Shown in pieces: positions 5,845 through 57,500 of a DNA stretch of 64,000 nt. The stretch covers positions 1 to 64,000 of the forward strand of contig MU057711.1 of the NCBI GenBank assembly GCA_013265495.1, given 5' to 3'. The notes under the pieces are model-generated. The model was not told where the DNA came from and did no database searches. It saw nothing but the letters and a program-made list of their open reading frames with translations. The position numbers and the translations under genes are program-made. Each line of letters starts with the position of its first letter. Positions within the stretch are counted from its first letter, which is position 1. This stretch comes from Vicugna vicugna (Eukaryota).

Positions 5845-6447
5845 TGTAGTAAGCAGAATAATTATCCCCTAAAGAGGTTCATATCCTAATTCCCAGAACC
5901 TGCTAAATATAATGCTGCAAGTGGACTTTGCAGATGTGATTAAGGGTTTTTTTTCCTCTTAAAAATATGGAATGCTTGCTGAATTTGCATGTCATCCTCA
6001 TGCAGGGGCCATGGTAATCTTCTCTGTATTGTTCCAATTTTAGTATATTTGCTGCTGAAGCAAGCACATGATTAAGGATCTTGAGATGGGGAGATTACTT
6101 TGGATTATCCAGGTGGGCTCAATGTAATCACAAGGGTTCTTATAAGTGAAAGAAGAAGGCTAGATGGGTTAGGGTCAGGAATTTGAAGATGCTACACTGT
6201 TGGATCTGGAGAGGGAGCAAGGGGCCATGAGCCAAGGAATGTAGGAGACCTCAAGAAGTTCATGAAAGGTAAGGGAATGGATTCTCCCCAAAGCCTCCAG
6301 AAAGAATGGAGCCCTGCTGATGCCTTGATTTTAGCTCAGTGTCAACCACATATGGGGTTCTGACCTCAACTGTACAAGAATAAATTTGTGTTGTTTTAAG
6401 CCACTAAGTTTATGGTAATTTGTTAGCAGCAAGAGAAAACTAACATA
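5845..6447 (+). mobile_element. MLT1D-like MaLR solo LTR, interrupted by the U6 copy and inserted in a minus-strand MIR
   Basis: tgtagtaagcagaataat...ggactttgcagatgtgattaagg...aataaatttgtgttgttttaagccactaagtt...gaaaactaacata. Confidence 0.88.
5961..6067 (-). pseudogene. Full-length U6 snRNA retropseudogene
   Basis: Reverse complement reads GTGCTTGCTTCAGCAGCAAATATACTAAAATTGGAACAATACAGAGAAGATTACCATGGCCCCTGCATGAGGATGACATGCAAATTCAGCAAGCATTCCATATTTTT. This is U6 with mostly CpG-decay substitutions. It has an A-rich tail (5947-5960) and a direct repeat tgattaagg at 5937-5945 and 6069-6077. Confidence 0.95.
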
Positions 6448-6689: not shown

Positions 6690-7310
6690 AATTCCTTATC
6701 TCACACTAAAGTATTTACAGAATATAAGATATGACGAATTTGCCTTAAAATTATCTAAGGGAGGCTGTGAGGGGAGTAAGTAGTGGATGGGGGTATAGGT
6801 GAAATAAGACTGAGTATGCGGGGGTAGTGTTCCAGCTGGACGGTAGTATGGGCACAGGGAGTTTTATACTACTGTATATTTTTAACCATATTTAAAAATT
6901 TTCAAAAAAAGTTAAAAACACAATTCAAGGTAAAGAGCAAAAAATGTCACAGAGGAAGATATACTTTAAAAGCCATGAAGTAACAAAACAAAAACAACTT
7001 TTAAAATAAAGCAACACTGACTGACAGAGAACCTATCAGTGGTGTCTGAGGAAGAGCTGGGTAGGGAAGGAGGGCCAGGGAAGGTGGGAAGGAGGGACAG
7101 CCGAGGGGCACGAAAAACTGTTGGATGTGATATACTCATTATTTTGATATTAGTTGTTGATCATCTCTGTGTATCCATAAAAAGATATATTGCATATATA
7201 CATATATATTATACATGTCATAACATCAAATCAAATATATCAAATGTGTACAGTTTTATTGCATGTAAATTATACTGCAATAAAGCTATAAGAAATAAAC
7301 AAACAAAATA
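6690..7310 (+). mobile_element. Old L1 (L1MC/MD-type) 3' UTR fragments
   Basis: Recognisable old L1 3' end motifs, e.g. gtacagttttattgcatgtaaattatactgcaataaagct. Confidence 0.65.
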
Positions 7311-17391: not shown

Positions 17392-18310
17392 TACAAATAC
17401 CAAAAAAAAAAATTATTTTTTCACATAAATGAAATCATACGACACACAATTTTGTCATCTTCTCTTGGTTAGTGTAACCTAAGCTTTTCCCACATCATTA
17501 AATACACATACATGTACACAGACCCACTTTTCTCATTAGGGTATTTAGGTTCTCCTCTACCCTATAATCCAACATTTTATCCTCTTAAAAACACCACCGA
17601 AGATCACTTTTACAGACATAGTGCAGTATACACAAATCTTTGGCATATCTCTGACAATTTCCTTGCGATAAATTCATAGAAATATAATTATTTCTGGGTT
17701 TAAGCTTAAAGCTTTGGGCATATATAGTGAAACTATCCTCTAGAAAGGCTATCAAGCATCTTTTTAGCAAACATTCACTGATGTTCTGGTAAGTGCCAAA
17801 CTCTGAACATGAATTTGCTTTCATGCATGCTCTTCCTTAATCCCCACAGCAAGGCTGTGAGGTAAGTCTAACGCCATCTCCCCCATCCCCTACCTTTTTT
17901 TTTTTTTTCAGAAGAGGAACCAGAAGCTTGGGCCAGTACATTACTCAAGGTCACAAAAGGAATGGCCCTCTTCTGAAAGACCTTGTGGCTGCTAGACACT
18001 AACTCATTTAAAAAACACATTATTATACTTCCATAGCAGATGGGAAGTCAATGGAAAATTAGATTATTTTATTTTCTGTATAAGATAAAATGTCTTGTTT
18101 AGCATAGTTGAGAGTATTTACTTGAAATTACATTAACAGTCTCTTTCATTTTGTTTATAGCAAGCTAAAAATTGGGTTCCTGTATCTATTTCTGTTGTTT
18201 AGAAGACTTCCTCTACTGAATCTGAAGTTCCACATTATAAGCACATAATAGGATGAAAATGATAAGATTTAAATGTATACATATGCACATATCACACATA
18301 CGTATCATAT

Positions 18311-18833
18311 GAGAATAACTCATTTTTATTGCACTTTGCATTTTTATACTTCTCAGACATTGCAGATTTCTTTAAATTTTATTTTTTCTACAAATTGAAG
18401 GTTTGTGGCAACCCTGTGTCAAGCAAGTCTATTGGTGCCATTTTTCTACCAGCATTTGCTCACTTTGTGCCTCTGTGTCACATTTTGGTAATTCTCACCA
18501 TTTTGCAAACTTTTCCATTGTTATTATATTTGTTAAACACACATACATGTACACAGACCCATGTGTGTACATGTGATCTCTGATGTTACTACTGTGAATT
18601 GCTGAAGGCTCAGATGATGGTTAGCATTTTTTAGCAATAAAGTATTTTTTAAATACAATTACATTTTTAAAAAGACTTAATGGTAATATTGCACACTTAA
18701 CAGACTAAAGCATACCTTAAACATAACTTTCATATGCACTGGGACCAAAAAATTTGTGTGATTCACATTATTGTGATATTCACTTATTACAGTGGTCTGG
18801 AACCAAACCTGCAGTATCTCTGAGGTATGTCTG
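18311..18833. mobile_element. Internally deleted Tigger1 derivative (TcMar DNA transposon)
   Basis: One Tigger1 end (acaaattgaaggtttgtggcaaccctg) is joined near 18600 to the other end (gctgaaggctcagatgat...atctctgaggtatgtctg|TA). Confidence 0.88.
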
Positions 18834-23602: not shown

Positions 23603-23775
23603 GGGGAGGGTATAACTCAAGTAGTAGAGTGCATGCTTAGCATGCACGAGGTCCTGGGTTCAATCCCCCCTACCTCCATTTACATACCTACATATATACA
23701 TACATACACACATACATACATACATACGTACATATATACGTACACCTAATTTCCTCCCTCCCCCAAAACCAAAAG
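23603..23775 (+). mobile_element. Vic-1-type camelid tRNA-derived SINE with (TACA)n tract
   Basis: ggggagggtataactcaagtagtagagtgcatgcttagcatgcacgaggtcctgggttcaatcccc carries A and B boxes. Paralogues lie at 28210, 39203 and 54435. Confidence 0.88.
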
Positions 23776-28480: not shown

Positions 28481-31030
28481 ATTCCACAGACCAATATTGT
28501 TGATGAACATAGATGCAAAAGTTCTTAACAAAATGTTAGCAAACAGAATCCAACAACACATAAAAAAGATCATATACTATAATCAACTTGTATTCAACCC
28601 AGGGACACAAGGATGGTTCAACATATGGAAATTAGTCAACGTGATATACCACATCAACAAAAGAAAGGACAAAAATCACATGATCATCTCAAAGATGCAA
28701 AAAAATCATATGATAAAATTCAACACTGATTTATGATAAAAACTCTTAACAAAGTTGGTATACAGGGAACATATCTAAACATAATAAAAGCTATTTATGA
28801 CAAATGTACAGTCAGCATAATACTCAACAGTGAAAAGTTGAAAACCCTCCTGCTAAAATCTGGAACAAGACAAAGATGCCCACTCTCACCACTTCTATTC
28901 AACATAGTATTGGAAGTCCCAGCCATAGCAATCAGACAAAAAAATAAATAAAAGGGATGCAAATTAGAAAAGAAGAGGTAAAATTGTCACTATATGTGGA
29001 TAACATGAAACTCTATATAGAAAATCTTGAAGGCTCCACACCAAAACTATAGAGCTGACAAAAGAATTCAGAAAGGTAGCAGGATACAAGATTAACATAC
29101 AGAAATCAGTTGCATTTCTTTACACTAACAATGAAATATCAGAAAAGGAAAGTAAAAAAAAAAAATCCCTTTTAAAATTGCATTAAAAAAATACATTTAG
29201 GAATAAACCTGACCAAGGAGGTGAAAGACTTATACAAAGATAACTACAAAACACTGATTAAGGAAAATAGAGATGATTGAAAGAAATGGAAAGATATTCC
29301 ATGCTCTTGGATTGGAAGAATTAATATTGTTAAAATGGCCATACTTCCCAAAGCAATCAACAGATTTAATGCATTCCTATCAAATTATTCAGGACATTTT
29401 TCACAGAAATAGACAAATAATCCTAAAATATATATGGGATCACAAAAGACTGAGAATTGCCAAAGCATTACTGAAGAAAAAGAATGAAACTGGAGGAATA
29501 GCACTCCCAGAATTCAGACAATACTGCAGAGCTACAGTAATCAAAACAGCATGGTATTGGCACAAAAACAGACATATGAATCAATGGAACAGAACAGAGA
29601 GCCCAGAAATAAACCCACAGACCTATAGTCAATTAATCTTCAACAAAGGAGGCAAAAATATACAATGGAGAAAAGAGAGTCTCTTCAGCAAGTGGTGTTG
29701 GGAAAACTGAACAGCCACATTTAAATCAATGAAGTTAGAACACTCACTCCATACACAAAAATAAACTCAAAATGGATCAAAGAATTAAATATAAGGCAAG
29801 ATACTATAAACCTCCTAGAAAAAAACATAGGCAAAACATTCTCTGACATAAATCTTAGCAATGTTCTCCTAGGGAGCCTACTCAGGCAATAGAAATAAAA
29901 GCAAAAATAAACAAATGGGACCCAATAAACTTAAATGTTTTTGCACAGCAAAGGAAACCATAAGCAAAATGACAACCTATGGAATGGGAGAAAATATTTG
30001 CAAATGATGAGACTGACAAAGGTTTAATTTCCCGAATATAAAAATGGCTCATACAACTTAATAACAAAAAACCAAACAGCCCAATCCAAAAATGGGCAGA
30101 AGACCTAAACAAGCAATTCTCCAATGAAGACATACAAATGGCCAATAGGCACATGAAAAAATGCTCAATATTGCTAATTATCAAGGAAATGCAAATCAAA
30201 ACTACAATTAAGTATTATCTCACACTATTCAGAATGGCCATCATTCCAAAGTCTGTAAATGGTAAATGCTGGAGAGGGTGTGAAGAAAAGGGAAGCCTCC
30301 TACACTGCTGGTGGGAATGTAGTTTGGAGTAGACATTATGGAAAACAGTATGGAGATTCCTCAAAAAGCTAAAAATAGATTTAACATATGATCTAGCAAT
30401 CCTGCTCCTGGGCACACATCCAGAGAGAACTGTAATTCGAAAAGATACATGCACCCCAATGTTCATAGCAGCACTATATACCATAGCGAAGACATGGAAG
30501 CTACCTAAATATCCATTGACAGATGACTGGATAAAGAAATTATGGTATATTTGTACAATGGAATACTACTCATTGATAAAAAAGGATAAAATAATGCCAT
30601 TTGCAGCAACATGAATGAACCCAGAGATTGTCATTCTAATTGAAGTAATCCAGAAAGAGAAAGAAAAATACCATATGATATCACTCATATGTGGAATCTA
30701 AAAAAAAGAAAAAAAGAGGACACTAATGAACTTATTTACAAAACAGAAACAGACTTGCAGACATAGTAAACAATATGGTTACTGGGGGAAAGGGGTAGGA
30801 ACGGATAAATTTGGGAGTTTGAGATTTGCAAATGGTAACCACTATGTATAAAAATAGATTAAAAACAAATTTCTTCTGTATAGCACAGAGAATTATATTC
30901 AATATCTTGTAATAATCTTTAATGAAAAGGAATATGAAAATAAATACATGTATATATCTGCAAGACTGGGACATATGCTATACACCAGAAACTGACACAC
31001 TGTTACTGACTATACTTCAATTTAAAAAAT
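28481..31030 (+). mobile_element. 5'-truncated lineage-specific L1 (ORF2 RT and C-terminus plus 3' UTR), frameshifted
   Basis: ORFs 28497, 28733, 29273 and 30138 give broken L1 ORF2 peptides ([52 protein letters not shown]). The 3' UTR ends gactatacttcaatttaaaaaa. Confidence 0.95.
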
Positions 31031-34110: not shown

Positions 34111-37100
34111 ATTAAAAAAACAAAACCCAAACAACAAACCAGAAGAATGAAAAGTGTATATCTTACAGTTACGGAGAGAAACTTGTATCATTCAACATTA
34201 GAAAGGAATGACTTTTTTGATTATGTGAACTTCAGCTAAACATGACATCTTTCCATGCGATTTTTTTTGAGTTATGCTACGACAGTCCAAGCATACAATA
34301 ACTGAAGGCTGGTTAAATCAACCAAATGGAACATTTTATAATTGTTAAAATGGTATCATAAAAGTAATATAACTGACATGTAAAACTGTTTACATTATGT
34401 TAAGTGAAAAAAGCAGGTCACAACACAGTATTAACAGTATGATCTTATTTTGCAATACAAAAAGAAGCATCACACACATAGTCATGCATACTTCTGAGCA
34501 CAGAGAGGTAGAGCTGGGTTTGGAAGGATATACATCTAAGACTAATGCTAGTTATATCACAGTGGCAGGGTTTTAAGTACGTTTTATTTTCTTTCTTTTG
34601 ATTTGTATGTAGCTTTGTGTAGTAGGCAGAAGACAGTGTTTTCCTGTAGTCACCAGTCACTCACTCTCACATCACCTACTTTAATTCACTGCATAGTTTT
34701 AGCACCACTTTGTATTTTTATTTGTGATTTGCTTGTGTATTGCATACTTTTCTTAAAGGTCTCCCTTATTCACTTTTGTATCCTCAAGCACCCAGAATTT
34801 GCCTTACTAGAAGTCACTCAATAAATATTTTTAAAGTAGAAGTTAACAGATAATGCTTTCTAAGAAGAAAAATAAACACTTTCAGCTAATTTATTGTTAA
34901 GTACTATCATCTTCCTTCTCAGCTCCTGTATTTCTGAAGTGATCAAATATGTTAGAAGCATAGGGAAATGGAGATGTAGTCTACTTGGACCCTTGAGAAG
35001 ACTGTGAACCCAAGGATGGCCAAACACTTCTCTGGGCTGCCTAGTGAGACACCTCACGAGGCCAAGAGTGGCCCAGGAACACTGCTCAAGAAAAAGCGGA
35101 ATGTGACAAGCTGATGACTGATTTTTATAAAAGAATACTCTCACAACACACACAAATCTTGTGTCCTCCAAGCAAGCTCCTTGTGATGCTCTGTACCTCT
35201 TTCAATGTCAGTGCTCATGACAGTTTTGTGATTACTCTTTGAGGATAACTTTGGAAGCTGCTGTCTTCTGACATCCACAGGGATGGTAAGTCTTCAATAT
35301 GAGCAATAAATGAACGTAAGTGTTATGGTTAAGATCAGTAAATAGCTTGGTTGGTACAGTATTTGTACAAAACAAAGTATATGTAAGGCAGTGAGGCATG
35401 TGAGACTGACTCTTTGACTTATTTTATTAAGACAACTCAGTTACCATATAATTCACCATTTTAAAGTGTTCAGTTTAGCAGTCTTTGGTATACTCACAAG
35501 GTTAAGTTTCAGATTATTTTCATCACCCTCATATAGAATGCCATCCCTATCAGCAATCACTCCCCATACAGGCAATTCTTATATAACTTCTAAAGAAATG
35601 TTCATTCTACTAAGGTGACTCCTCCAGACAACTGATTCAACCGATTCAACTGTGTTTTAGATAAATATCAAACATATTCATTTAGAGTTGGGGACACCAA
35701 TGAAATTCAATCAAGGAAAACAAACTGTTGTGTCACCAGCCATATTTTGTGTTTATACCATATTCTAAAATCAACTTCTATGAAATATTCATAGGTAAGA
35801 AATCCTATGTATTTGAATACCTGAATACCCGAGAGAAAAGAACTAACCACATTTAAGTTCAATTTTATCTTCTTGGGAAAAGCTTAACAACATGCTGAGT
35901 TAAGATAATTACATACCTTAAAAAAAGAGCATTATCCCATCAATGAAAATGCATTCAAATAAGATTAAACCAGGAACATATACATAATCACTTGCTAAAA
36001 CCCTTTATTAAGCAGAGGACAAAACATTTAGGTAATTAACTAAAACTGAAAGAAAAAGCAGGTGTAACACAATTAGTGCTTCTATAAAGCTATAACCTTT
36101 TTCCTTATCAGTTCTTTCTTGGCCTTGAGTGGCCCCAAGTGACCCAATTTAAGATTTAAGCTTATCATTTGAGATTACTTTGTACTATTATTTGAAGGTA
36201 AGTTTCCTGGGTTAGAAGTTTAGATTATTGATTTGATAAAGATATTCTTCGCTAATGTAAACATTTAGTGCCATAAAAATTTCTCATAAGAACTGCCTCA
36301 TCTGTATCCTACAGATTCTGATATTTTCATTTTCATGTAGTTCAATATAAAAAATTTCCTTTGACTCACCTATTATTTAGAAATGTGGTTAATTTCTAAG
36401 TGTTAAGAGACTTTCGTGTTATCATTTATTGACTTTAGTTTAATTCCACTGTGGTCATATATTGTACAAGTAAATATGTTAAGGTATGTTTTATTTTGTT
36501 AAACACTCCAAGTGTTTGCATAAAAATATGTGTTCTGAGGGGAGTGGCCAAGATGGCATAACAGGAAGACACTGAGCTCACTTCCACCCACAGGCACACC
36601 AAAATTACAACTATTTACAGAGCAACTATTGATAAGAAGGACCTGAAGACTATCAGAAAAGATTTTCCACAACTAAAGATATAATTAAGGAAACACAATG
36701 AGGCTGGTAGGAGGGGTAGACATGCAGAATAGTCAAGACCTACACACTAAAGAGGCAACCCACAAATTGGAGGATGATCACAACTGCTGAGGTCCTTCCA
36801 GAGGAGCGAAGGGTCCAAGCCCCACAATGGGTTTCCCTGAATGAGGATCTTGTACTGGGAAGACAAGCCTCCATAATGTCTGGCACTGAGGGCCAACAGA
36901 GCTTGCACACTGGAGAGCTGGGGATCTCTGGGAAATAGAGACTCCACTCTCAAAGGGTGCTTGTAAAATCTCACATGCTTCAAGACCCAGTGCAGAGGCA
37001 GTAATCTGAAAGGATTGTGGGTCAGACACACTTGCTGATCTTGGAGAGCCTTCCAGAGAGGCAGGAGGCAACTGGCACTAGCCCTGGAGATACAGATGCT

Positions 37101-38463
37101 GTTGGCAGCCATTTTCGGAAGCCTGCACTACCACGGTAACATTGGTGCTGGCAAATGCCATTTTGGAGTCCTCCCTATAATGTATTAGTGCTGGGGGCTT
37201 ACATGCCCACCAAACGATGAGCACCTCTCTCAAGGATGCCCAGGCCAAGCAGCCAGCCATGAGGGGATATATAGCCCTGCCTAACTGCAGGTTGGCACCA
37301 GCCATGGGTCTCTCCAGGCCCCAACAAGTCCCTCAGCCAGCCACCCCAAAGCCAGGTCTTGTCTACCAGAGGCCAGGAACAGTCACAGGATGCCCCAGAC
37401 CCTGAAGATAGTCCTCCAGGGACTTGGCCACACCTGCTAGTGGGCAGCACCAGTCCTGGAACTCCTCAAGCACCACAGCCAGCTGCCATGGGACTGGTTC
37501 TGCTCACCATGAGGCTGGTCTCAGATCTGGGCACAGCAGGCCCTAGAGCCATTCATACCAGGACCCAGCCCCACCCACCAATACGCTGGACCAGCTGTGG
37601 AAATGCTAGGCCATGAAGCCAGTTGCCCAGAGACCCAGCCCCACAAAACAGCAGACTGGCACTATCCCAGGACTCCCCAGGCCATGCAGCAAGCCATTCT
37701 GGGATCTGGACCAGTGGATGGCAGCCTTCCAATCAGGCAGGGCCTGACAGCCAACTGGGTGTGAGGGGTCAGCCCTGCCCACCAGTATGCCCACAGTAGT
37801 TGGTCCTGCCACAACAGAAGGGCCCATGGAGCTCACAAGGGAACACTGCTAGATCATATACCTCTGGTGATAGAGGGGCATTGTGCTGCTGGGGCTCCTA
37901 CATAAGGTCACTTCTGGAACAACACCAAGAGTATTAAAATTTACATATAGGGGTGGCAGAAGAGAGAAAGAGGCAGAGAACTTATCTGAAGAAATAATAG
38001 CTAAAAACTTCCCTAATCTGGGGGAAAAAACCCCCAGATCTGTAAGCACAGAGTTTCAAACAAGATCAACCCAAAGAGATCCACACCAAGACACACTGTA
38101 ATTAAAACAGCAAAAATTAAAGATAAAGAGAAAATATTAAAAGCAGCAAGGGGAAATGACTATCCACAAATAGGGAAACTCCCAAAGACTATCAGCTGAC
38201 TTTTCAGCAGTAACTCTGAAGGCCAGAAAGGAGTAGTAGTATATATTCAAAGTGATGAAAGGAAAAAAATCTACAACCAAGAATACTGTATATGGCAAGG
38301 CTATTATTGAGATTTGAAGGTGAGATCAAGAATTTTACAGAGCAGCAAAAGCTAAGAGTTCAGTACTACTAAACTGACTTCACAAGAAATGCTAAAGGGA
38401 CTTCTATAAGTAGAAAAGAAAACACCAGGACCACAAGTGGAAATATAAAAATTATGAAAGAAA

Positions 38464-38656
38464 CTTATTTATCTATTCTATATATGCCTGTCACTGTATA
38501 GCACAGGGAAATATATACAAGATCTTGTGGTAGCTCACAGTGAAAAAAATGTGACAATGAATATATGTATGTTCATGTATAACTGAAAAATTGTGCTCTA
38601 CACTGGAAATTGACACAACATTGTAAAATGACTGTAACTCAATAAAAAAAAAGTTT
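38464..38656 (+). mobile_element. Short young L1 3' end with 5' inversion, nested in the older L1
   Basis: Perfect TSD aaaaattatgaaagaaa at 38447-38463 and 38657-38673. Contains an L1 3' UTR ending in aataaaaaaaaa. Confidence 0.9.
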
Positions 38657-39202
38657 AAAAATTATGAAAGAAAAAAATCTCACTGGTTATGGCAAATGTA
38701 CAGTAAAGACAGTAAATCAATCACATATAAAACAGAAGGAAGGTTAAAATCAAAAGGAGTAAAATCTTCTATATCTACAATCAATAGTCAAGGGCCACAC
38801 AAACAAAAAGATGTAAAATATGATGTCAAAGACAGTCAATGTGGTGGGTGGCAGTAAAAATGCAGGGTTGTTAAAATACATTTAAACTTAAGAGATCAGC
38901 AACATAAAATATATTTCACTATATAAAACCTCATGGTAGCCACAAACCAACAATTTATAATGGATACACACACACACAAAATAGAAAGGAATCCAAACAT
39001 AACACTAAAGATGACCATCAAATTACAAGGGAAGGGAACAAAAGAAAGGAACAAAAAAGAACTAGAAAAAAACCCAAACCCCAGAAAACAATGAACAAAA
39101 TGGCAACACGTACATACCTATCAATAATTACTTGAAATGTATATGGACTAAGTGCTGCATTCAAAAGACAGAGTGGCTGAATGGATTAAAAACAAGACCT
39201 GT

Positions 39203-39683: not shown

Positions 39684-40153
39684 TAATGACAAATAAAATA
39701 ATACTGAAATAATCATAGTTTAGGCATACAAAAATTGAGACATGTAGCCATTGAGGATCTGGTCTCAGACATACCCTTGCACTACTGAGAGCTTAAATTT
39801 TCTCTGAACTGGATCAAACCCAAGGACACCAGGAGCTGTATTTGGAACAACCTCCACCAGTGGTAACTTTATGGACTCAGGGTACCCCCCCTTGTAACTA
39901 CATAACCATTTCAGATGCCACCAAACCATGCTTAATAAGCACCCTTACTTCTCGCCAGCTCTAATTATAATTCTTGACAAACAACTTATGTAACTAAATG
40001 TGGCCCTGCAATTTTTGCCTTTATAAGTTTCCTCCACAGAACACAATTCAAGTGCTTCTGGAATCTGTGTCTCCCAGGCTACAGTCCTAACAAAATACAA
40101 ATAAATGCCTCTTTATTTCAATCAAGTCTCTGTTTCTGAAATTTTGGTTAACA
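39684..40153 (+). mobile_element. 470-bp solo LTR (probably ERV1 class) nested in L1 ORF2
   Basis: Interrupts L1 ...ttacatc|aatagacagatca. 4-bp TSD catc at 39680-39683 and 40154-40157. Ends ...ttaaca. Has TATA-like tttataa near 40020 and AATAAA near 40099. Confidence 0.8.
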
Positions 40154-41551
40154 CATCAATAGACAGATCATCTAGACCAATAAGAAACCACTGACCTTAA
40201 CTGACACATTGGACCAGATGGACCTAAGATATCTACAGAACTTTACACCCCAAAACAACAGAATACACATTCTTTTCAAGTGCATGTGGAACATTCTCCA
40301 AGATAGAGCACATGCAAGGCCACAAAACAAATCTCAAGAAATTTAAGACTGAAATCAAATCAAGCATCTTTTCTGACCACAATCTTATGAGACTAGAAAA
40401 CAATTTCAAGAAAAAAAAAAAAAACCTGTGAAACCTAAAACTTGTGGGAAAAAAATGCTCCTAGGCAACCAATGGGTTACTGAAGAAATCAAAGAGGAGA
40501 TAAAAATATACTTGGAGTTATATGAAAATGAAAACACAATGATCACAAATCTATGCAATGCAGCACAAGCAGTTCTAAGAAGGAAGTTTATAGTGATACA
40601 AGCTTACCTCAGGAAACAAGGAAAGTTTCAAATAATAAATTTATATGTAAGGGAACCAAAAATAGAACAAACAAAACCCAAAGTTAGTAGAAAGAAATAA
40701 TAGTAGGAATACGTGAAGCACAGACTAAGAAAAAACAATGAAAAAGATCAATGCAACTAAGAGCTGGTTCTTTGAAGAGATAAGCAAAATTGATAAACCT
40801 TTAGTCAGACTTATCAAGAAAAAGAGAGAGGGCCCAAATTTAAAAAATCAGAAATGAAGGGAGATGTTACAAACAACACCACAGAAATATAGAGGATCAT
40901 AAGAGATTACTAGGAACAATTGTATGCCAATAAAATGGACAACCTAGGAGAAATGGATAAATTTCTAGAAACACACACTCTCCCCAAACTGAACTGGAAG
41001 ACACAGAAGACATACTAATTAACAGTAATAATAATAATCATAATAAAAAAAACTGCTAATAAGTAAAAGTCCAGGATCAGAAGGCTTCACAGATGAATTC
41101 TACCAAATATTTAAGAAGAGTTAATATATATCCTTCTCATACTATTACAAAAATTGAAGAGGAAGGAACAACTCTGAAACTATTTTACAGGCCAACATTA
41201 CACTTACACCAAAACCTGACAAAGACACCACAGCTCCTTCCTCTCCCTAATCCTTTGTGCATTCCCTTGTTGGTAGGTTTGCTTAGAGTAGGGTGGGGAT
41301 GATCAACAATGCTCCATTCTTACAATTTCCAAAGCATTTAAGAGGGAGAGGGTGGTACACCACTTTATTAACAGAGGGTGGGAATGGTCATGGGGCTTTG
41401 CCACAGTCTGTCTACCAGATGAGGAGAAGCAAAGGATTGCCTCTTTAATGTACAGTCAGCATATTCCAAAAGGCTCTACTCCCCAGTCTCCATGGCACTC
41501 CATAAGGAGGGTGGTGGCTTCTGCGGTGGTGTTCATTTGCAGTAGAGCAGG

Positions 41552-41885
41552 TTCTATGGACTGAATCATGCCTCTCTGCCCCCATTTCATCTGTTGAAGC
41601 CCTAATCTCCAATGTAACTGTATTTGGAGATAGAGCCTTTAGGGTAATTAAGGTAAAATGAGCTCTTAAGGGTGGAGCCCTAATTCTATAGGATTAGGTG
41701 TTTATAAGAAGAGACACTAGAAACAGAAAAGTTCATGTGAGAACACAGAAGGAAGGTGCCTGTCCCTAAGCAATGAAGAAAGATCTCACCAGAAGCCAAT
41801 CCTGGATATTGTACTTCTAGCTTCCTAAATTGTGAGAAATAACAGATTTGGCAGAAAGGATTTCTGTTGTACAAGTCCCGCAACT
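41552..41885 (+). mobile_element. MLT1A/B-like MaLR LTR
   Basis: ctatggactgaat...gttgaagccctaatctccaatgt...gtatttggagatagagccttt...taattaaggtaaaatgag. Confidence 0.82.
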
Positions 41886-42219
41886 TTCTAGTCCTCTGGC
41901 TTAAGTCTTAGAACTTTTTGTTTCTGTCTTGGCTCAACAGCATCTCTGAGTTGCAGGCTACATTAGTGCCAGGCCAGGATATTTAAGAAAAAAACAAGTA
42001 GACAAACAACCAAAAAACCTAACTAGCTATAAAATCATCACAAAAACAAAAAGAAAAGAACTCATCACTGGATTGTCCCTCTAGTCCTGAGGTCCCTAGC
42101 CAGTCTACTCCTCTGTCCACCTTTCAGTCTTATGATTAATTGTTTTATGTCTTTTATTTTTTCAGGTGTAATTAGCAGGAGAAATAAGGTGCATTTTGAT
42201 AATTTCATTTTCTCTGAAA

Positions 42220-47130: not shown

Positions 47131-48116
47131 ACACAGTCCACTGTCATTCTTGGTACTCTTTGACAACACTGTGCCAGTCACCACTTGAAGCCTGGATAAA
47201 TAAAATTTAGAATATACATGCTGTGGAAGATTATTAATAAAAAGAGGTATTTATACATGTTACAACATAGGTAAACCTTGAAAATACTATGCTAAGTGAA
47301 AGAAGCCAGTCATGAAGGACCAAAAATTGATTCCATTTATCTATAAAAAGCTAGATCTTGCTACTACAGGTCTATTATGTTTTTTGTTTTGTTTTGTTTC
47401 TTTTAAATCATGTGTAGTAGCAACACTGAAAACAGTGGCCCACTACAGCATTCAATCTCCCAGTCTTAGGGAGAAAAGGCTGAAAATGAGGTCTGGAAAG
47501 ACTTGGCATATTTTAAGTCACTTCCTGAAATCAACAGAAGAAAACTTTTTGCTGACACCTTTTAATTTTCCCTTTTCATTCTCCTTTGGAAGCTCCTGTG
47601 GTACAAAATTAACAGGAATAAAATAGCCTTTAATCCTTTCTCTGACAATAATCTGTGTGGTCTGTAGGTGGTAGGAGTTCACCTAGCTATCACAGATCTT
47701 TTGGAACTAAAGTTGACATTCATGTTGTTGACAGTCTAGTTTAAATATATTTCTTAATAAGGTAAGATTTGGAGGGAAGAGGAAGGAATCATGTTTCATT
47801 TAATCACACAAGAAATTTACAAGGTAGGTACAGTCTTCCTTACTGTATAGATTTATAGATATATAGACAGGCTAAATACCTTGCTAGAGGAAACAGAGTT
47901 CCTAGTGGCAGCACTGGATTGAAGCTGAAGACTGAAGCCCATGTTTTCAAAATTAAATTAAAAATTTTTTATCCTAAGCTTCAATTAGAAGTAAACTTTT
48001 CTTTTAACCCCATGTGATACACAATGTAGTGGAAGAAACATGTGTTTTACAATGCACCCTAAGTCAAATCCCTTTCGGGACAAACGTTGTCAAACATTGG
48101 GAGAAAAAAAAGAAAA

Positions 48117-48927
48117 GGACATCAGCGTCATGGTGGAGTGAGATGCTCCCCTTGTTCTCTCCTTCAAGTCTAAAGCCAGTAAAACATCCACAACTCAACA
48201 AAGGTGTCTCTGCCCAACACATCAGGCTAGAAAATTCATACATCTGCATATTTAAAGTGGGTGGAAAAGGGGGAACAGTGAAGGCAGTAACTACAACCCT
48301 GCTCACATGGATCCCTGGCAGCAGCAGCTGGGCCCATGGCCACAGAGAACCCAGTAGCAACAGGGGCCATGGCACATCCGACTCTGGCCTCCTGGCTGCT
48401 TGTGCTTGTGGCTACAGTTAACAAGGAAGCAGTGGCAGAAGGACTATGGTCCCGTCCCTCCAGCTGTGGAGGCGCCCACGACTCTGGCCCCCCACCCACT
48501 GCCTGCAGCAGTGGTACCCATGAACCAGAAAACAATGGACACGGAAGGGGTACCCACAGCCCTGGCTCCCTCTTGCTCTTTCCCTCCCCCAGTGGTGGCG
48601 AGGCCTGTGACTCAGGAGACCCAGACACAGCAGCCCACCACGAACGTAATACGTAAAATACAAACAAATAAAAATCCTCCCAAATATGTGATCAAACCAA
48701 ACCAAAGAAAAAATGTAGATGCAAAGAATAGAGCAGTAGTGACCAAGGGGAAGGAGCGAGTGGGAAGGAGGGGGAAATGGATAAAGGGGATTAACTGTCT
48801 GGTGACAGATGGAAACTAAATTTTTGGTGGATGAGCACACTGCAGTGCATATAAACAGAAATGTAATGTCGTACACATGAACTTTGTACAATGTTATAAA
48901 CCAATGGTACCTCAACAGGAAAATTTG
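48117..48927 (+). mobile_element. L1 5' end fused directly to an L1 3' UTR (no ORF1 or ORF2)
   Basis: GC-rich L1-like 5' end (ggacatcagcgtcatggtggagtgag) runs to ~48650. It is followed by an L1 3' UTR ending aatgttataaaccaatggtacctcaa. Flanks are aaaaagaaaa on both sides. Confidence 0.7.
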
Positions 48928-49708
48928 AAAAAGAAAACTTGTTTGTGTTTTCTCTTTTCATGAATGTATCTGACCTCAAGGACACAACAGGTCTGAATCT
49001 AAGTTTTCCCAATTCATGGACTATTAGGAGAAGCATCTTCAATTCTGTCATTCTGGGAAACTGATTCTATGCTACCAGTTTCTAACAACATTAGTATAAC
49101 TTATACAGCTAGTAAGAATTATGAAAACAGAAGTTCAAAATCTCCCATGTTACTGTTCTTTTGAAGAAATTCGGTTACTGTTCCTTAGAGGCAATAAAAC
49201 TTTGTGGCTACTATCTAGGAAGGAAAATGAAACAAAATTGATTCACGTATATAGTCTAGAATGCTTTCTCCTTTTCCAGCAACTGCTCACCAATTATAAA
49301 AGTTAACTGTAAATGCTGATGATTCAAGAGTTAAAAAGCTTACTTTGCTTTATATTAGCATAATTTTATGCAAAAACGAAGTTAGCAGTGAACTCATCAA
49401 TTATATAGAAAATGCTTACTGGAATTTATCTTGGTAGCTGTGGTGACTAAGTAATGAAATTTATTAACACAGTTCATCTGGAAAGATTAGCATATACTCA
49501 TATCAACTTAGAAGGCTATACTCTGCCAAATTAGCATTCAGGATGGAGGAAAATAAAGAAGTTTTCAGACCTGTAAGGTCTCGGAAAGAGTCTGCAGATT
49601 CTCCTTGATAGAATTACTTGACAATGTATCCAGAAAAATAACAGATGAAACAAAGAAAGAATGGAAAACATGGGTGTTCAATGGTGGTCAAAGAAACCAG
49701 CAAACTTT

Positions 49709-49927
49709 AGGAGGGATAAACTGGGAGTCTATAGATACTAGCTACTATATATAAAATAGATAAACAACAAGGTACTATTGTAGAGCACAGGGAACTATAC
49801 TTAATAACTTGTAATAGACTATAATGAAAATATGAAAAGTAATATATATGTATGTTAACTCAATCACTATGCTATGCATCAGAAATTAACACAACATTGT
49901 AAATCGACTATACTTCTAAAAAAAAAA
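49709..49927 (+). mobile_element. Cetartiodactyl-type L1 3' UTR fragment with A10 tail (head of the putative transduction)
   Basis: ggagggataaactgggag...ctactatatataaaatagataaacaacaagg...cacaacattgtaaatcgactatacttc is homologous to 30790-31020. Confidence 0.9.
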
Positions 49928-50169
49928 GACTGTTTTTTTTTAAACAGAAATCAGAAATCCATACTTCTATATGAATTCTCCTGATTATTCAAGGAAAACA
50001 GGCCACAGGCTGAATTCAGCCCACAGATCACATGTATGCAATTTCTGAAAGAGAGGCTTTGAGTAATCCAATAATAAGCCTGGTCTAACAATTCTATATC
50101 AAATTTGGGACAAATTGAAAAATAGAGTTGGAACGTACAGAAACATCATCCATGACACAAAAGCAGATC

Positions 50170-52250
50170 ACCTAAAAGATGGATAATTTTGCCCACGTCA
50201 AAACTAACAATATCTGTTCAATTACTAAAAAATTTCTTAACTAGAAGAAAATGTTTGCAACATATATACTTGATAAAGGATTAGTGCCCAGACATATAAT
50301 TGCTACAAATTAGTAAGAATTAAAAAAAAAACAGCTAACAGAAAAATTGGCAAAAGCAATCCAAAGGAGAGAAAATACAAATGGCCTTATAAACATATAT
50401 AAAAATATTCAACCTTGCTAGTAATGAGGGATATGCCAATTCAAGCAACAATGAAAACCATTTTTTCTGTCAGTTTACCACGTTTTAAGTTTAATCATAC
50501 CATGTCTGCAGTGATGTGGAGAAGTGGGCAACCTCATAAAATACTAGCAGGGAACACAATGCTGCTTTGAATGACAATTTGACTTCATTTAAAAATTTAA
50601 ACATACGTGTCTTATGATCCAGAAATTTCACTTTTCACATCAAACCATAGATATTTTCTCACAAATACACAAAGAGGCATGCTTGAAAATGTTCACTGTT
50701 ACAGCAACAAATGGCAATTACCTCAATGTGTACCAATGGAGAAATGGTCAAACTATAGTATGTCCATTTGATGCAGTTCTATACAACAGTTAAAAAGAGT
50801 AAGGTAGATGTGTCTGCGTATTCCAGTGTGAAAATACTACTGTATTATTATCGCTAAAAGAAGTGAACTGCAGAAAAATACCTAAAATAATAATTTTTTA
50901 AAGTCTATAAAACTACCCCTTCCTCATGCCACATACAAAAATCAATTCTAGGCAGACTGTTAAGGTAAATGTGAAAGGCAAAAGAATAGAAGTCTAGAAC
51001 ACAATGTAGGAAATTATTGTCCTGAAACTAGGCTAGGAAAATTTTCTTAAACTGGACAACAAAAGTACAATCCATATGGTAAAAGATTGATAAGCTGGAC
51101 TAGATTCAAATGAAGAGCTTCTGTTGATCAAAAAGACACCTTTAACAGAATGAAAGGGCATACGTGAAACCAATGAAAAGGTCATATACAGAATGCATAA
51201 GGAGCTCCTACAACACTCCTATGGAAAGCTGAAATGGTCACGGAAGCTGAAGGTACACATAGCCTATGACTCCCCAAGTCCTCTCCTGAGTATAATCAGA
51301 CAGGATGCGTGCATGTGTGCATCAAAGACTTGTACAAGAATTTTCACAGCAGCATTTTCTGTACTAAAAAAATTGTAAGCAACCTAAGTGATTAGGCTAG
51401 AGACGGAGGCAAAGCCTAGTAACTGGGAAGTGGCGTGAGGGGGATTTCTGGAGTAATGGAAACATTCTCTATCTTGACCTGGGTGGGGGTTGCATGAGTA
51501 TTTAGCTATGTACTTCTGTGCGTGCTTTTGTACATGTTTGTAATACTTAATAAAAATAATTTAAAAAATATATGGGTAAATACAATTCAACATTTATAAG
51601 ACAGTCTAGAAAATATGAACAATTGATTGTATATTATTCTATACAGAATTCTTGTTAATTTTTTAGAAGAAGCACGTCATTAGGTGTGATAAAGCAAGTC
51701 ATTAGCAAGTCACATAATTATATTTTTAAGAGTATTTATATTTTAGAGATCCATACTAAAATATTAACAGTGAAAGGATACTATGTCTGAGATTTTCTTT
51801 AAAATAATCCATGGGAGGTGTGGGGAGGACACAACGAGGTATAGCTGAAAAAAGACTATGAATTTATAATTGTTGAAGCTGAGAGCTAATAACTTTTGAA
51901 GTTAGGGGATGAGAACATGGAGAAGCTTCATTACATAACTCGCTCTATATCCTGAAATTTTCCAAAATACTAAATATAAAATAATACTCTCTATAAACTA
52001 TTATATGTACATACTATTTATATGCATGTAATACATAATACATAAAATATTTATATACGTTCTCTTTTAAAAAGTCTGCATGTACATGTAAATTCACTGC
52101 AACAGATCTGGAAGGACACAATACACCGAATTAGCAACAGTGATTAATTTGAGGGCAGGGAAAGGGATTGGTAATATTTGTAATGTGTACCTTTTCTCCA
52201 AGTAGAATATAGTCATGTACATCTAATAAAATACAAAAATTAATGCAAAT
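50170..52250 (+). mobile_element. Ancient L1ME/MC fragments inside the putative transduced segment
   Basis: Highly decayed L1 ORF2-end and 3' UTR motifs. Confidence 0.65.
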
Positions 52251-52714
52251 TAAAAATAAAATAAATTAAAAAAAGAAACTAGCAAACTTTGTAGCCAAGT
52301 GTAAATAATTATAGCAAGAAAATGTGAAAGTAAGTACATACATAAATAGGTAAAACTTGGATGATATCAGTACGGTAATATCACTGCATGAGAGTAACTG
52401 GGTAGGAGAAAGAGAATTGAATGTATGCTAAAAATCTTGTCTTAAGGACTGTCTTATCTGTAGTTAGTGAACTAATGTCTAGTTCACTAAAGAAATGAAG
52501 TTTAAACATAAGTACTGAACGTTTAAGTGTAATGACTAAAACAGCAATAAAATTTATAATATACCAACCATCTTAGGAAGTACAAAAGGAAGAAAAATTT
52601 GAATGATTCAACAGAAGGCAGAAAAGAAAGAAGAAAAATGAGATAAAAACAATGAATACAAACATTAAGTGGCAAGAATAAATTAAAGCATGTGTAATCA
52701 CCTAATATCACTAA

Positions 52715-52960
52715 TAATTAAAATAACAGTAGGCACTACATAGAATCTTATACTGTGCCAAGCAGTGTTGCAAGTCCTTTGCATATGTTAACTCATTTCA
52801 TTCTCACAATAACCTCACGACGTAGGTACTATTATTATTCTCATTAACAGGTATTAAAACTGAGAAAGGTTACTTGCCATGATCAAACAAATAATAAACT
52901 GTAGAGCTAGAATCTGAATCTAGGCTCCACAGTGCAAGCTTTTCACTACTCAATTATACT
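52715..52960 (-). mobile_element. MIR SINE
   Basis: tatgttaactcatttcattctcacaataacctc..gtaggtactattattattctcatt matches the antisense MIR core. Confidence 0.82.
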
Positions 52961-53029
52961 GCTTCTTTGAATGGGTTAAATTCTATCATTAGAAGACAAA
53001 GACTTATATATTCAGTTTTTTAAAATTTC

Positions 53030-53985
53030 CATCATGTAGCCCTTTCTTAACTTAAGGTTTTAGAGGTCCACCTATGCTGCTGACTACACTTCTTTAGTAA
53101 TTTATTATTATTTTTTATCGATAAGAATTGTTAAATTGTATAAATATACCATCACTTGTTTATCTATTTTCTTGTTATGGACATCTGATTTGTTTCCAAT
53201 TTATAAGCCTTTTTGTGAATTTTTCATTTCTCTTGCATAAATACCTAGGAATGAAATTGCTGGATCACAGGAAAGGTACATGTTTAACTTCATGAGAAAC
53301 TGACAGAATTTTCCAAAATGATTATGCAATTTTACATTTCTGTCAAAAAATGTATGAGGGTTCCAGCTGTTCTACATCCTTACCAACATTTGGTGTTATT
53401 TGCTTTTTTAATTGCAACCATTTTAGTGCACATGAATAAGAGTATCAAAATGGCTTTAACTGCATTTCCTTAATTACCACTGATGCTGAACATCTTTTCA
53501 TATTTTTGTATAACTTTTTCACTGAATTGCCTTGGCACCTATGTAAACAAATCAGTTGGTCATAATATGTATAGCTCTATTTCTGGACTCACTGTTCTGT
53601 TCCACTGATCTCTATATGTATTTCTTACGCAAATATCACAATGCCTTGATTACTGCAACTTCACAGAAAGTCTAAAGTCAGGTAGAAGGAGTCTTCTTTT
53701 TTTGTTGTTTTCTTTAAGATAACTTTGACTAATTCAGGTTTTAATTTAAATATTTTAACCAGCTAATCAAGTTTTTTCATATAAATATTAGAATCAGCAT
53801 ATCAATTTCTACAGAAGCTTGTTGGGATTTTGATTAGAATTGTGTTCAATCTATAGACCAAGTTGGAGAGAACCAACTTTCTCAGATGGAGAGAATATTG
53901 AGTATTCTGACGTGTGAATACGGTATCTTTCTCCATTTTTTGGGTCTTCTTTAATTACTCTCAGGAGTGTTTTGGGGTTCAAGAA
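53030..53985 (-). mobile_element. Old L1 ORF2/3' fragment
   Basis: aaatacctaggaatgaaattgctggatca; ccttgattactgcaacttc; gttgggattttgattagaattg. Confidence 0.8.
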
Positions 53986-54434
53986 CAGGTACAAACAACT
54001 TAGGCTGACAGAAATAAAAACACTGAGAACTTATGAGGCTAGGGATTAACTAGAAGGGAAGTATGAGAAAGTTTTCTGGAGTGATGGAAATGTTTTATAT
54101 CTTGATTGGAGTACTGGTTACATAGGTATAAACATTATCAAAACTCATCAAATTCTACATGTAAAATCTTTGCATTTCATTGAATGCAAATTTTTCCTTA
54201 ATAACATGCCACAGAAAAGTTGAAAATAAAGGAACAGAAATATGTCTGATAAATGCTAAGAAAAAGAAATAGCATAGAAATCATAATACTACAAAAAAGA
54301 GAATTCAAAGCATAAAGCATTAAGTGCATAAAAAGGGATTTCATGATTAACAAAAGAAGTGAGAGGACAAAACCTTATGCACTCAAGGTTGCAAACATAT
54401 AAATTAAAAGTTGATAGAGAAGCTGACAATTGGG

Positions 54435-54523: not shown

Positions 54524-57500
54524 TTCTTCAGGAACTATTTATTCTTAAAAACACTTACTAGAAATTAAGAAAATGGAAAATTCTATTAGCTATGTATTCA
54601 ATGAAATAAACTAAAACAAACAAACAAAAATAGCAAAAATGTAAGGGATTATAGAAACAGAAATAGATAAAATATTATGGAAATCAATTTTATCATTGAA
54701 AATAAGAGTAATTTTTCAAACAACTATAATAACAACACAGACATGAATGAAATAATAAAATGGATCAGCCTTAATCGAATCTGATGAATAAATAAAGAAG
54801 ACAAATAACATTAGAAACATGAAGGGGTTATACCTATGGATTGAAAGGAAATGCAAAAATTATAAAAGAATGCAATGCTATGCTAATAAATTGTGCAGGA
54901 GTAATTATTAATAGACTGATTAAAGTGATTGCTGATAGAGTAAATAATATTTAACATACATCTTTTTGAATTAACAAAGCCTGTCAGTGTCTTTAACTTA
55001 CTGTCTCATAATCTTTTTTTCATAAGTAGTAGATTTTAAAATTTTAGTATAGGGTGAAGAACTTTAATATGGGACTCATTAGGGCAGAAGAATAGGCAAC
55101 CTTATTGTAGAGAAAATATGATCTTTATAAATACTAACTACTGAAGCTGAAGTTGGTTTGTGAGAAAAGGTCAGTCAATATATCAGTATGAGTTCTTCCA
55201 TGATATGACAATATGAGTTCTTCAATTCTGAGTTATCATCCAGGATAAGATTTGAAACACACTTTGTCATTTTTTTATTCTGCCATACCATACTGGGCAA
55301 TTTAGTATTCTCCCCCATTTGAAGTACCAAAAAAAGCTACTGAATAAGACAGTAAGTCAGAAATAGTGTAAAAATGAAAGTAAATTTAAGCCTGTAAAGA
55401 TACCCTATATGGTAAAAACTTAATTAAAAAAAACACATATTGAATATTTCTGGAGGTTTTATAATAATTTGCTTAAGAGGAAGTAATAACTTTATTAAAT
55501 CAAGCAGTGATGTGAATATGATTCTTGAACTCAGTAGCTTTGTTAATTTTGAAAAACAAACATTTTATAAAAAATTTGCTCTACTCCTACATATAATTCA
55601 ATAAAATGCCCTAAGCAAAAATAGTAAGATATTCTTCAGTCTTCAATAAGTTGTGAATGCAGATAACTTCCTTACACAGAGTTACTATTATTCATTAACT
55701 AGAGGTTAGTTAATGATTTAGGTGATAAGACTTAGTGATGTAGGTTGTAATGTCAGAAGTAGGTTATCCTCTCAAGCAGTATTTGAACAGATGAAAATTA
55801 TGTAAAAAAGCCAACCGAGATTTCTTTTGCATGCTACCACTAAGCATTCCTAGGCAGAGTTGGCATGGAATGTTTTCTTCTTTAATTGTAAATTAGGAAG
55901 ACTTTTATATTTTCACATCCATGGAAAAGGTGGTGATTAACTTCATTTTAAAAAGATTATGGCGAACCATTTGAAATATAAGATATAAAATCAGTAAGAG
56001 ATCTGATGTAATTTAAAATGATGATGAGATCCTTTGAATATATTTCATAACAAATATGAAAAACAACACTGGCTACAAGTACAAGTAGATAAAGGCATCT
56101 GTACTATCAATCTCCTTGCCTATGAAAGCAGAACATCTGGAACATAAAATAACCTTTTCTTGGTGACTCAGGGTATCAATGCGAAGCTAAATTATTTTAT
56201 AAAGCTGAGAGTGAAGATAAAAATGCAGATTATTCTGAACAGGTGGTTAGCTAATACCTACAGAAGTCTCCAGCAATTCTTTTTTGACAAAATGCAAGAT
56301 CCCAATTTGCTTCTGGTCATTTTCCAACCTTTCATAATGGTAGCTTGAAAGTGTACCATCAACACATCTAAATTATGTCACTGCTTTCCAAATGACAAGA
56401 GACCACATGACTGCACGTAATCAATCTCTTTTGACAGTAAGCAGTTTTGGTGAGGAACTGCTGTTATGAAATATATAGACAGTTGTTTATTTTTTCCTCT
56501 TCAGGACTCAGAAAATTATGAATTTTATTTATTTGTTACTAGCTTGCTCCTTCTTTCTCTTGTTAGTGACTTTTACTATGTGCCCAAATCATCACTTCCG
56601 ACTTTTGCTAAAAATGTGTTATTTTTGGTTATCTACTACTACCTCCTTCTAAATTTTTTTCTTACAAGGAAAGAAGAAGACTCGGATTCTGTGAACTTAA
56701 GAGTCCTGACTGCAACTGTGTGACCCTGCACAAGTTGCCTGGCTTATCTGAGACCATTTCTATATTTACAAAGTAAAGATAACACCCTTTAAAAAATTAC
56801 TGTGAAGTAATGAAGATCACTTAACAAACTAAAGCTATTTTCTTCTTGGCGTTAACTGACAAGGAATACATTGCATTTGGCCATTTATTGATTTACTTGC
56901 CATTTAACAGATTTGTGGTGTTCTCATGGCTGAAACTCAGAATCTCCTTTGCTGCTAAAACCTCTTGTTTAAAAAAAATTTTCTTTTTCCAGTACTTTTA
57001 GATTTGTATTTCCCATAAATACCTTCTGGAAGTTGAGGTTTCGTTATACAGTTTCATCCACTGACTTGCAATTTATTAATAACAATAAAACTTTTCTTAA
57101 ATATATTAACATTCTGATTAAGTAATATGGAATAGGAAACAAAGACTAAAAATCACTCTCTTATATCTTCAGTTAAATGCTTAAAATAAGGAATAAATAT
57201 GCACTGTACATGCTTCACAAAATGAATCCTTGACACAACTTCTAAAGTATCAATGTTAAACAAGTATATATGTAGTTTTAGCAAATTACCATCTATGTTA
57301 TCCTTGAATTTTAAAAAAAGATTCAATATGGTTTAGAATATTAATTTAAATTTGGTTTATAAAATTTTCCTACAGAAACCTAATAGTTGCTTTAAATTGA
57401 AATTAAGATTTAATTTTATCTATGACATTATGTTTCTAGGGGAGTTTTTAGGGGAATGTTCCTTCTAATATGAGCAAAAAATAAAATTTCCAGTATACCA

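Follow-up and report, generated by a model that had tools for sequence, protein, structure and literature searches.

How did some 2.3 kb of old, heavily decayed sequence come to follow the 3′ end of an L1 element inside an intron, with both of them enclosed by one short direct repeat? The block in question occupies 49709-52271 of the window, by which we mean the whole stretch of 64,000 nt that was analysed from contig MU057711.1 of Vicugna vicugna. A first-pass annotation had proposed that it is a single insertion into ITFG1, made when an L1 transcript from a donor locus ran on into the downstream DNA and carried it along. Here we follow the block from its surroundings inwards and weigh this proposal against the other routes that could lead to the same arrangement.

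The host intron and the old L1 within it

Four exons on the minus strand of the window (62584-62489, 60246-60076, 26527-26369 and 24911-24801) match ITFG1 at 88-98%, and a 98% match to T-cell immunomodulatory protein identifies ITFG1 as the host gene. Two of these exons, 60246-60076 (amino acids 299-355) and 26527-26369 (amino acids 354-406), are consecutive in P0001 and enclose an intron of 33.5 kb (26520-60073, minus strand) with GT and AG ends. The block lies between them, which agrees with the intronic site first suggested. It is oriented antisense to ITFG1, and the nearest exon is the upstream one, at a distance of 7.8 kb. Searches with an ITFG1 exon against plasmids and the PDB gave no match. 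Read on the ITFG1 strand, the insert holds one ATTAAA and one acceptor-like site, and it lacks both AATAAA and donor-like sites (all judged by simple patterns). No exon or RNA gene has been moved by the block, and neither a function of its own nor an effect on ITFG1 is expected.

The window contains several other repeats. Short tRNA-derived repeats occur at 23606, 28215 and 39209 and, as we take it, resemble the camelid SINE Vic-1. A full-length U6 snRNA copy (5961-6063, minus strand; Rfam RF00026, 96 bits) lies in an LTR-like relic and is probably a retrocopy. A 30-nt direct repeat has its copies at 17498-17527 and 18533-18562, at a spacing of 1,035 nt. A presumably Tigger-like relic is broken up by the second of these, behind which comes a short fold-back of that copy; the arrangement resembles a repair insertion with a local template.

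The flanks of the block were aligned, separately, to a reference L1 at 38150-39200 of the window. On the left, 49405-49674 aligns to the ORF1 end of this element at 38184-38439 (2 of 200 shuffles reach the score). The peptide of 49468-49605 aligns to the reference ORF1 peptide (10 of 2000 shuffles), which belongs to Pfam PF17490 (E = 1.6e-8); neither Pfam nor the PDB yields a match to the left-flank peptide itself. DNA and peptide alignments both point to the ORF1 end of an old L1 at 49405-49689 (plus strand). On the right, 52297-52720 aligns to 38675-39130 of the same reference (1 of 200 shuffles), and DNA alignment assigns 52291-52720 (plus strand) to the inter-ORF spacer, as far as the start of ORF2. 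When the inserts are left out, 40 nt stay unaligned between the two flanks here and 25 nt in the reference L1. An empty-site model, aligned with strict scoring, continues through the junction with a score of 52, compared with at most 48 in 590 real-sequence controls; the same score is reached by 13 of 500 shuffles, and control joins gave 51 (swapped halves) and 56 (cargo end plus right flank). Taken together, the alignments suggest, at weak to moderate strength, that both flanks lie in order on one old L1. The joined flanks presumably resemble a continuous old L1 consensus.

Further ORF2-like pieces follow to the right, at 54561-54893 (1 of 300 shuffles) and, weakly, at 54221-54353 (33 of 300); apart from such ORF2 pieces, a translated search against the L1s of the window returned mostly composition noise. 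HAL1 is an ORF1-like element without ORF2. Because the relic seems to continue into ORF2-like sequence, an ordinary old L1 seems to fit better than HAL1. The description of the flanks as halves of one old element holds at the strength given above, and its HAL1 label seems less apt. A gapped pattern made of the right repeat and its flank matched one viral, two metagenome and one bacterial locus; we discarded three of these, after comparison with the window, as chance AT-rich matches and the bacterial one as chance on the basis of its title.

Just after another L1's ORF1 end, at 38444-38674, there is an L1 3′ end of ~190 nt whose 18-21-bp duplication is clean and which sits at nearly the block's position on the L1 map. 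The L1 that starts near 36540 is interrupted in ORF2 by ~450 nt of LTR-like sequence (39700-40155) and breaks off in ORF2 near 41230, with GC-richer unrelated sequence and an LTR-like relic at 41235-42030. An L1-like piece of ~830 nt (48105-48935) has a GC-rich part, similar to a 5′ region, joined directly to a 3′ end. Its possible duplication consists of A-rich 10-mers only, and it is perhaps an internally deleted L1.

Anatomy of the block

The outer boundary of the block is formed by the two copies of a 19-bp target-site duplication, at 49690-49708 and 52272-52290 (plus strand). They are identical at 18 of 19 positions, exactly as the first-pass annotation had reported, and the match is not extendable on either side. 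The left copy abuts the 5′ end of the L1 piece and the right copy directly follows the A-rich tail, in both cases to the base. Only 38 of the 63,982 19-mer positions of the window have, within 5 kb, a second 19-mer that differs from them at no more than one base. These positions fall into nine clusters, the block's included, and the other eight include repeats of tandem or low-complexity type, a pair of SINEs, a pair of L1 motifs and a further target duplication. On the plus strand of the window, the next-best match of the 19-mer has five mismatches. When the following 5 kb were shuffled, none of 1000 shuffles reached one mismatch or fewer, the best being two mismatches, seen once. These counts rule out a chance origin of the repeat.

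Among five other inserts of the window, three young ones have clear duplications (no mismatch in 18, one in 15 and one in 11), the remaining two having only A-rich 9-10-mers as possible duplications. One mismatch in 19 is therefore of a quality like that at three other young inserts, and counts for insertion. The age of the block is poorly bounded by it, since one mismatch in 19 allows a pairwise divergence of anything from 0.1 to 26%. On the bottom strand the nick site reads CTTT/GA and fits the loose, weakly diagnostic pattern YYYY/RR, so that the proposed likeness of the left junction to an L1 endonuclease site holds in this form.

The first base past the left repeat is the start of a 5′-truncated L1 3′ UTR of 209 nt (49709-49917, plus strand), which runs antisense to ITFG1 and in the sense of the tail. 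It is 71% identical to the L1 end at 30803-31029, which comes after an ORF2 matching the L1 ORF2p of the PDB, and 72% identical to that at 38495-38651. A 23-mer taken from it had no match in viral or genome contigs. L1 sequence accounts for only 8% of the block. A first A tract (A10; 49918-49927, plus strand) follows, and it lacks AATAAA; both the truncated UTR and the signal-free tract are as originally described. The AATAAA that the L1 end at 38640 possesses is absent from the block's L1 end. This absence is not specific, because two of the three other L1 3′ ends of the window (31030 and 48930) also lack AATAAA and have no visible cargo.

No target-site duplication was found after A10: within 49915-49975 the best repeat of the left junction has 9 nt with one mismatch and is ~20 nt away from the tract. 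This rules out that the L1 piece went in alone with a duplication of its own. In a history of two steps, a solo L1 3′ end would have arrived first, and an L1-driven retrocopy (an orphan transduction or a non-coding RNA) would then have entered its A tail and duplicated ~12 bp of A-run plus GA. In agreement with such a history, A10 followed by GA at the left mirrors A7 followed by GA at the right, and the junction ahead of A10 is itself a T/AAAA site. However, among the insertions in Table 1 of PMC4859970 an A-run plus GA is very common at the start of L1 target duplications, and the donor's own duplication would explain the symmetry equally well. A second strike on one 12-bp site would also, we infer, be rarer a priori than a transduction, and we regard two successive insertions as unlikely.

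The cargo proper begins at 49928-50047 with a single end of a DNA-transposon-like relic. It contains a perfect 14-bp palindrome (50008-50021), the pattern of which has this one site in the window, and a partner piece is found nowhere else in the window. The relic is putatively MER103/hAT, and a palindrome of this kind is typical of hAT-Charlie ends. The body of the cargo (50048-52246, plus strand) is a mosaic of old L1 relics, among them no fewer than two distinct ORF2-end pieces and three that resemble 3′ ends. One ORF2 end, at 50240-50794, matches that at 29983-30581 of the window (E = 6e-17); the second lies at 51245-51389, of which 51268-51381 was matched to a window relic. Two of the pieces resembling 3′ ends, 51393-51501 and 51750-51881, have their matches among other relics in the window. 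Identities between cargo pieces and window relics are 58-70%, which bears out the view that the ~2.3 kb between A10 and AATAAA is older sequence. Searched with nhmmer, four of seven cargo sub-pieces, namely three plus the last 290 nt, had no window match. Alignments of the last 230 nt to two old L1-end relics gave scores reached by 41 and 5 of 200 shuffles, respectively; this last part we presume to be L1ME.

A close paralogue of the cargo is absent from the window, which rules out local tandem duplication, and a blastn search of 48940-53060 against plasmids and phages found no match. Eight frames from the cargo or its flanks had no Pfam match above the cut-off, and Rfam had none in the cargo. 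We rejected a weak match to the SRCR domain (E = 0.054), which came from a ten-frame Pfam scan with nothing above the cut-off. CpG depletion (0.18-0.27) does not separate the parts of the block.

At its 3′ end, the cargo carries AATAAA at 52225-52230 (plus strand), 16 nt before a second, decayed A-rich tail (52247-52271, plus strand; 19 A of 25). The tail is purest from 52252, where it had first been placed. In the window, 1 of 185 AATAAA sites (116 on the plus and 69 on the minus strand) is followed, 10-30 nt later, by the start of 25 nt with at least 19 A, and this is the site at 52225. The ends of seven old L1 relics in the window contain 12-19 A of 25, the relic at 7290 reaching 19 of 25. 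Since relic ends are equally A-rich, the tail of the block may be an old relic's own. Signal and tail are both present, as the first-pass annotation stated, but as evidence of polyadenylation they weigh less than it had implied. A further AATAAA lies inside the cargo, at 51549, and would have to be skipped under read-through.

The relic-like tail also bears on the view that the cargo is old DNA still in its original place. The old L1 spacer would then hold a stack of ancient insertions, the outermost of which would have left the 19-mers as its duplication, and the sole young part would be the 209-nt L1 piece, at the edge and without a duplication. The cargo pieces are indeed all old L1-type relics, mostly on the plus strand like the flanks, and no donor copy of the cargo was seen in the window. 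Three features argue the other way. At 30% pairwise divergence the probability of one mismatch or fewer in 19 is 0.010, a young L1 would have to land exactly at the inner edge of the repeat and leave no duplication, and the cargo opens with a lone transposon end. We consider old DNA in place to be improbable. A mosaic of heavily decayed relics would predate a young insertion, and a young block built from such a mosaic implies copying from another place.

Routes of insertion

Given a repeat that chance does not explain, an L1 piece that did not insert on its own, and flanks that appear in order on one L1, we judge it very likely that 49709-52271 is a single inserted block copied from elsewhere. 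To this extent the original proposal is supported: the window controls point to one block with the hallmarks of retrotransposition. Beyond it, we infer a donor locus, read-through and an RNA intermediate. Of the mechanisms considered, 3′ transduction by L1 read-through explains the block best, with a probability that we judge to be roughly two in three (0.68). It is favoured by the two A tracts, the YYYY/RR site, the AATAAA-tail geometry that is unique in the window, and the known frequency of the process. A YYYY/RR site and two A tracts belong to the anatomy that PMC4859970 gives for 3′ transduction.

In this mechanism, transcription of an active L1 elsewhere in the genome would have overrun the poly(A) signal of that element, a weak or damaged one. 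The read-through RNA would have taken in ~2.3 kb of downstream old relics and ended at the AATAAA that one of these relics has close to its 3′ end. ORF2p would then have nicked CTTT/GA in the spacer of the old, dead L1 within the ITFG1 intron. Target-primed reverse transcription, in one event, would have copied the tail, the cargo and 209 nt of L1 before an early stop left the 5′ truncation, and repair would have produced the 19-bp duplication.

Three other routes give the same anatomy as L1 read-through. The least improbable of them does without an RNA carrier: a solo, 5′-truncated L1 inserted and made the 19-bp duplication, its 3′ end broke at a later time and was patched by copying the end of another L1 copy with its 2.3-kb flank, and the ends were rejoined by A-rich microhomology. 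Such a patch would look the same as a transduction, and the A-rich end of the old relic that closes the cargo could serve as the microhomology. However, it needs both a break within about 220 bp and 209 nt of homology, and it would make the spacing of AATAAA, 16 nt and tail (1 of 185) partly a coincidence. We consider this route improbable. Were it true, it would suggest that repair scars make up a real share of those older 'transductions' that have been assigned on structure alone in reference genomes of mammals.

Alternatively, the RNA could have started at a cellular promoter, run through the 3′ end of an already dead L1 into the relics beyond, and been copied in trans, with the truncation falling inside the L1 piece. 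The cis preference of L1 is established, and in view of it a live L1 with read-through is a simpler origin for the RNA. In addition, the cargo has no spliced or exon-like part, as judged from the Pfam and Rfam searches described above. On the other hand, a host transcript would leave the same hallmarks, and PMC4862182 describes many source loci with only truncated L1s nearby. A retrocopied host transcript seems an improbable source for the block. To all other explanations together we assign very little weight.

Relation to known transductions

At 2.3 kb, the cargo is on the long side for transductions. The process itself is well known and frequent, and the block is probably a further example of it. 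Reported frequencies of 3′ transduction are about 2-9% of germline L1 insertions (PMC12350158, PMC4862182, PMC13141329). In human, 466 of 5,311 polymorphic L1s (8.8%) are given with transductions, the calls relying on a second poly(A) and on source mapping (PMC12350158). The primate study reports 274 events in 15 genomes, rates of 2.5-8.8% in three primates, and an intronic position for 90 of 280 cases, about a third (PMC4862182). The rate given for dogs is about 1.8%, mostly parentless (PMC13141329), and 3,669 of 18,739 somatic L1 events are listed as transductions (PMC7058536).

The closest known system is the partnered L1 3′ transduction, which has in common with the block a 5′-truncated L1, a first A tract, non-self sequence, AATAAA and a second A tract, all enclosed by one 4-25-bp duplication whose site fits YYYY/RR (PMC12350158, PMC4862182, PMC4859970). 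It differs in that published calls map the cargo to its source. The block is old and camelid, and its cargo consists of old repeats. With 8% L1, it would tend to escape the canine pipeline, which asks for at least 70% L1 and at least 25 bp unmasked (PMC13141329). The 'parentless' L1 3′ transductions of dogs (PMC13141329) likewise come from a non-primate mammal and have their cargo behind an L1, but they are recent and dimorphic, and an L1 is reported next to the source in only 3 of 27. A donor locus with no L1 beside it would therefore, by itself, still be compatible with transduction.

L1-mediated retrocopies and orphan transductions share the target-site duplication, the poly(A) tail and the foreign sequence (PMC4862182), and differ from the block, where the 5′ side of the cargo is taken up by the 3′ end of an L1 and the A tract belonging to it. 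In the U6/L1-type and mRNA/L1 chimeras described in bioRxiv 10.1101/2025.02.02.635956, one duplication also surrounds L1 and non-L1 sequence, but with L1 on the 3′ side and the other RNA 5′, the reverse of the order seen here. Among titles and the beginnings of abstracts, no description of this locus or of a camelid transduction was found. In the accessible text of a camelid repeat survey, 3′ transduction is named once, in a general statement (PMC8605555).

If the block is indeed a transduction, its short L1 piece with a long, repeat-derived cargo would represent a type of event that current pipelines can miss. For the camel family, the cargo would then be a barcode for an extinct L1 source, and the insertion a presence/absence marker.
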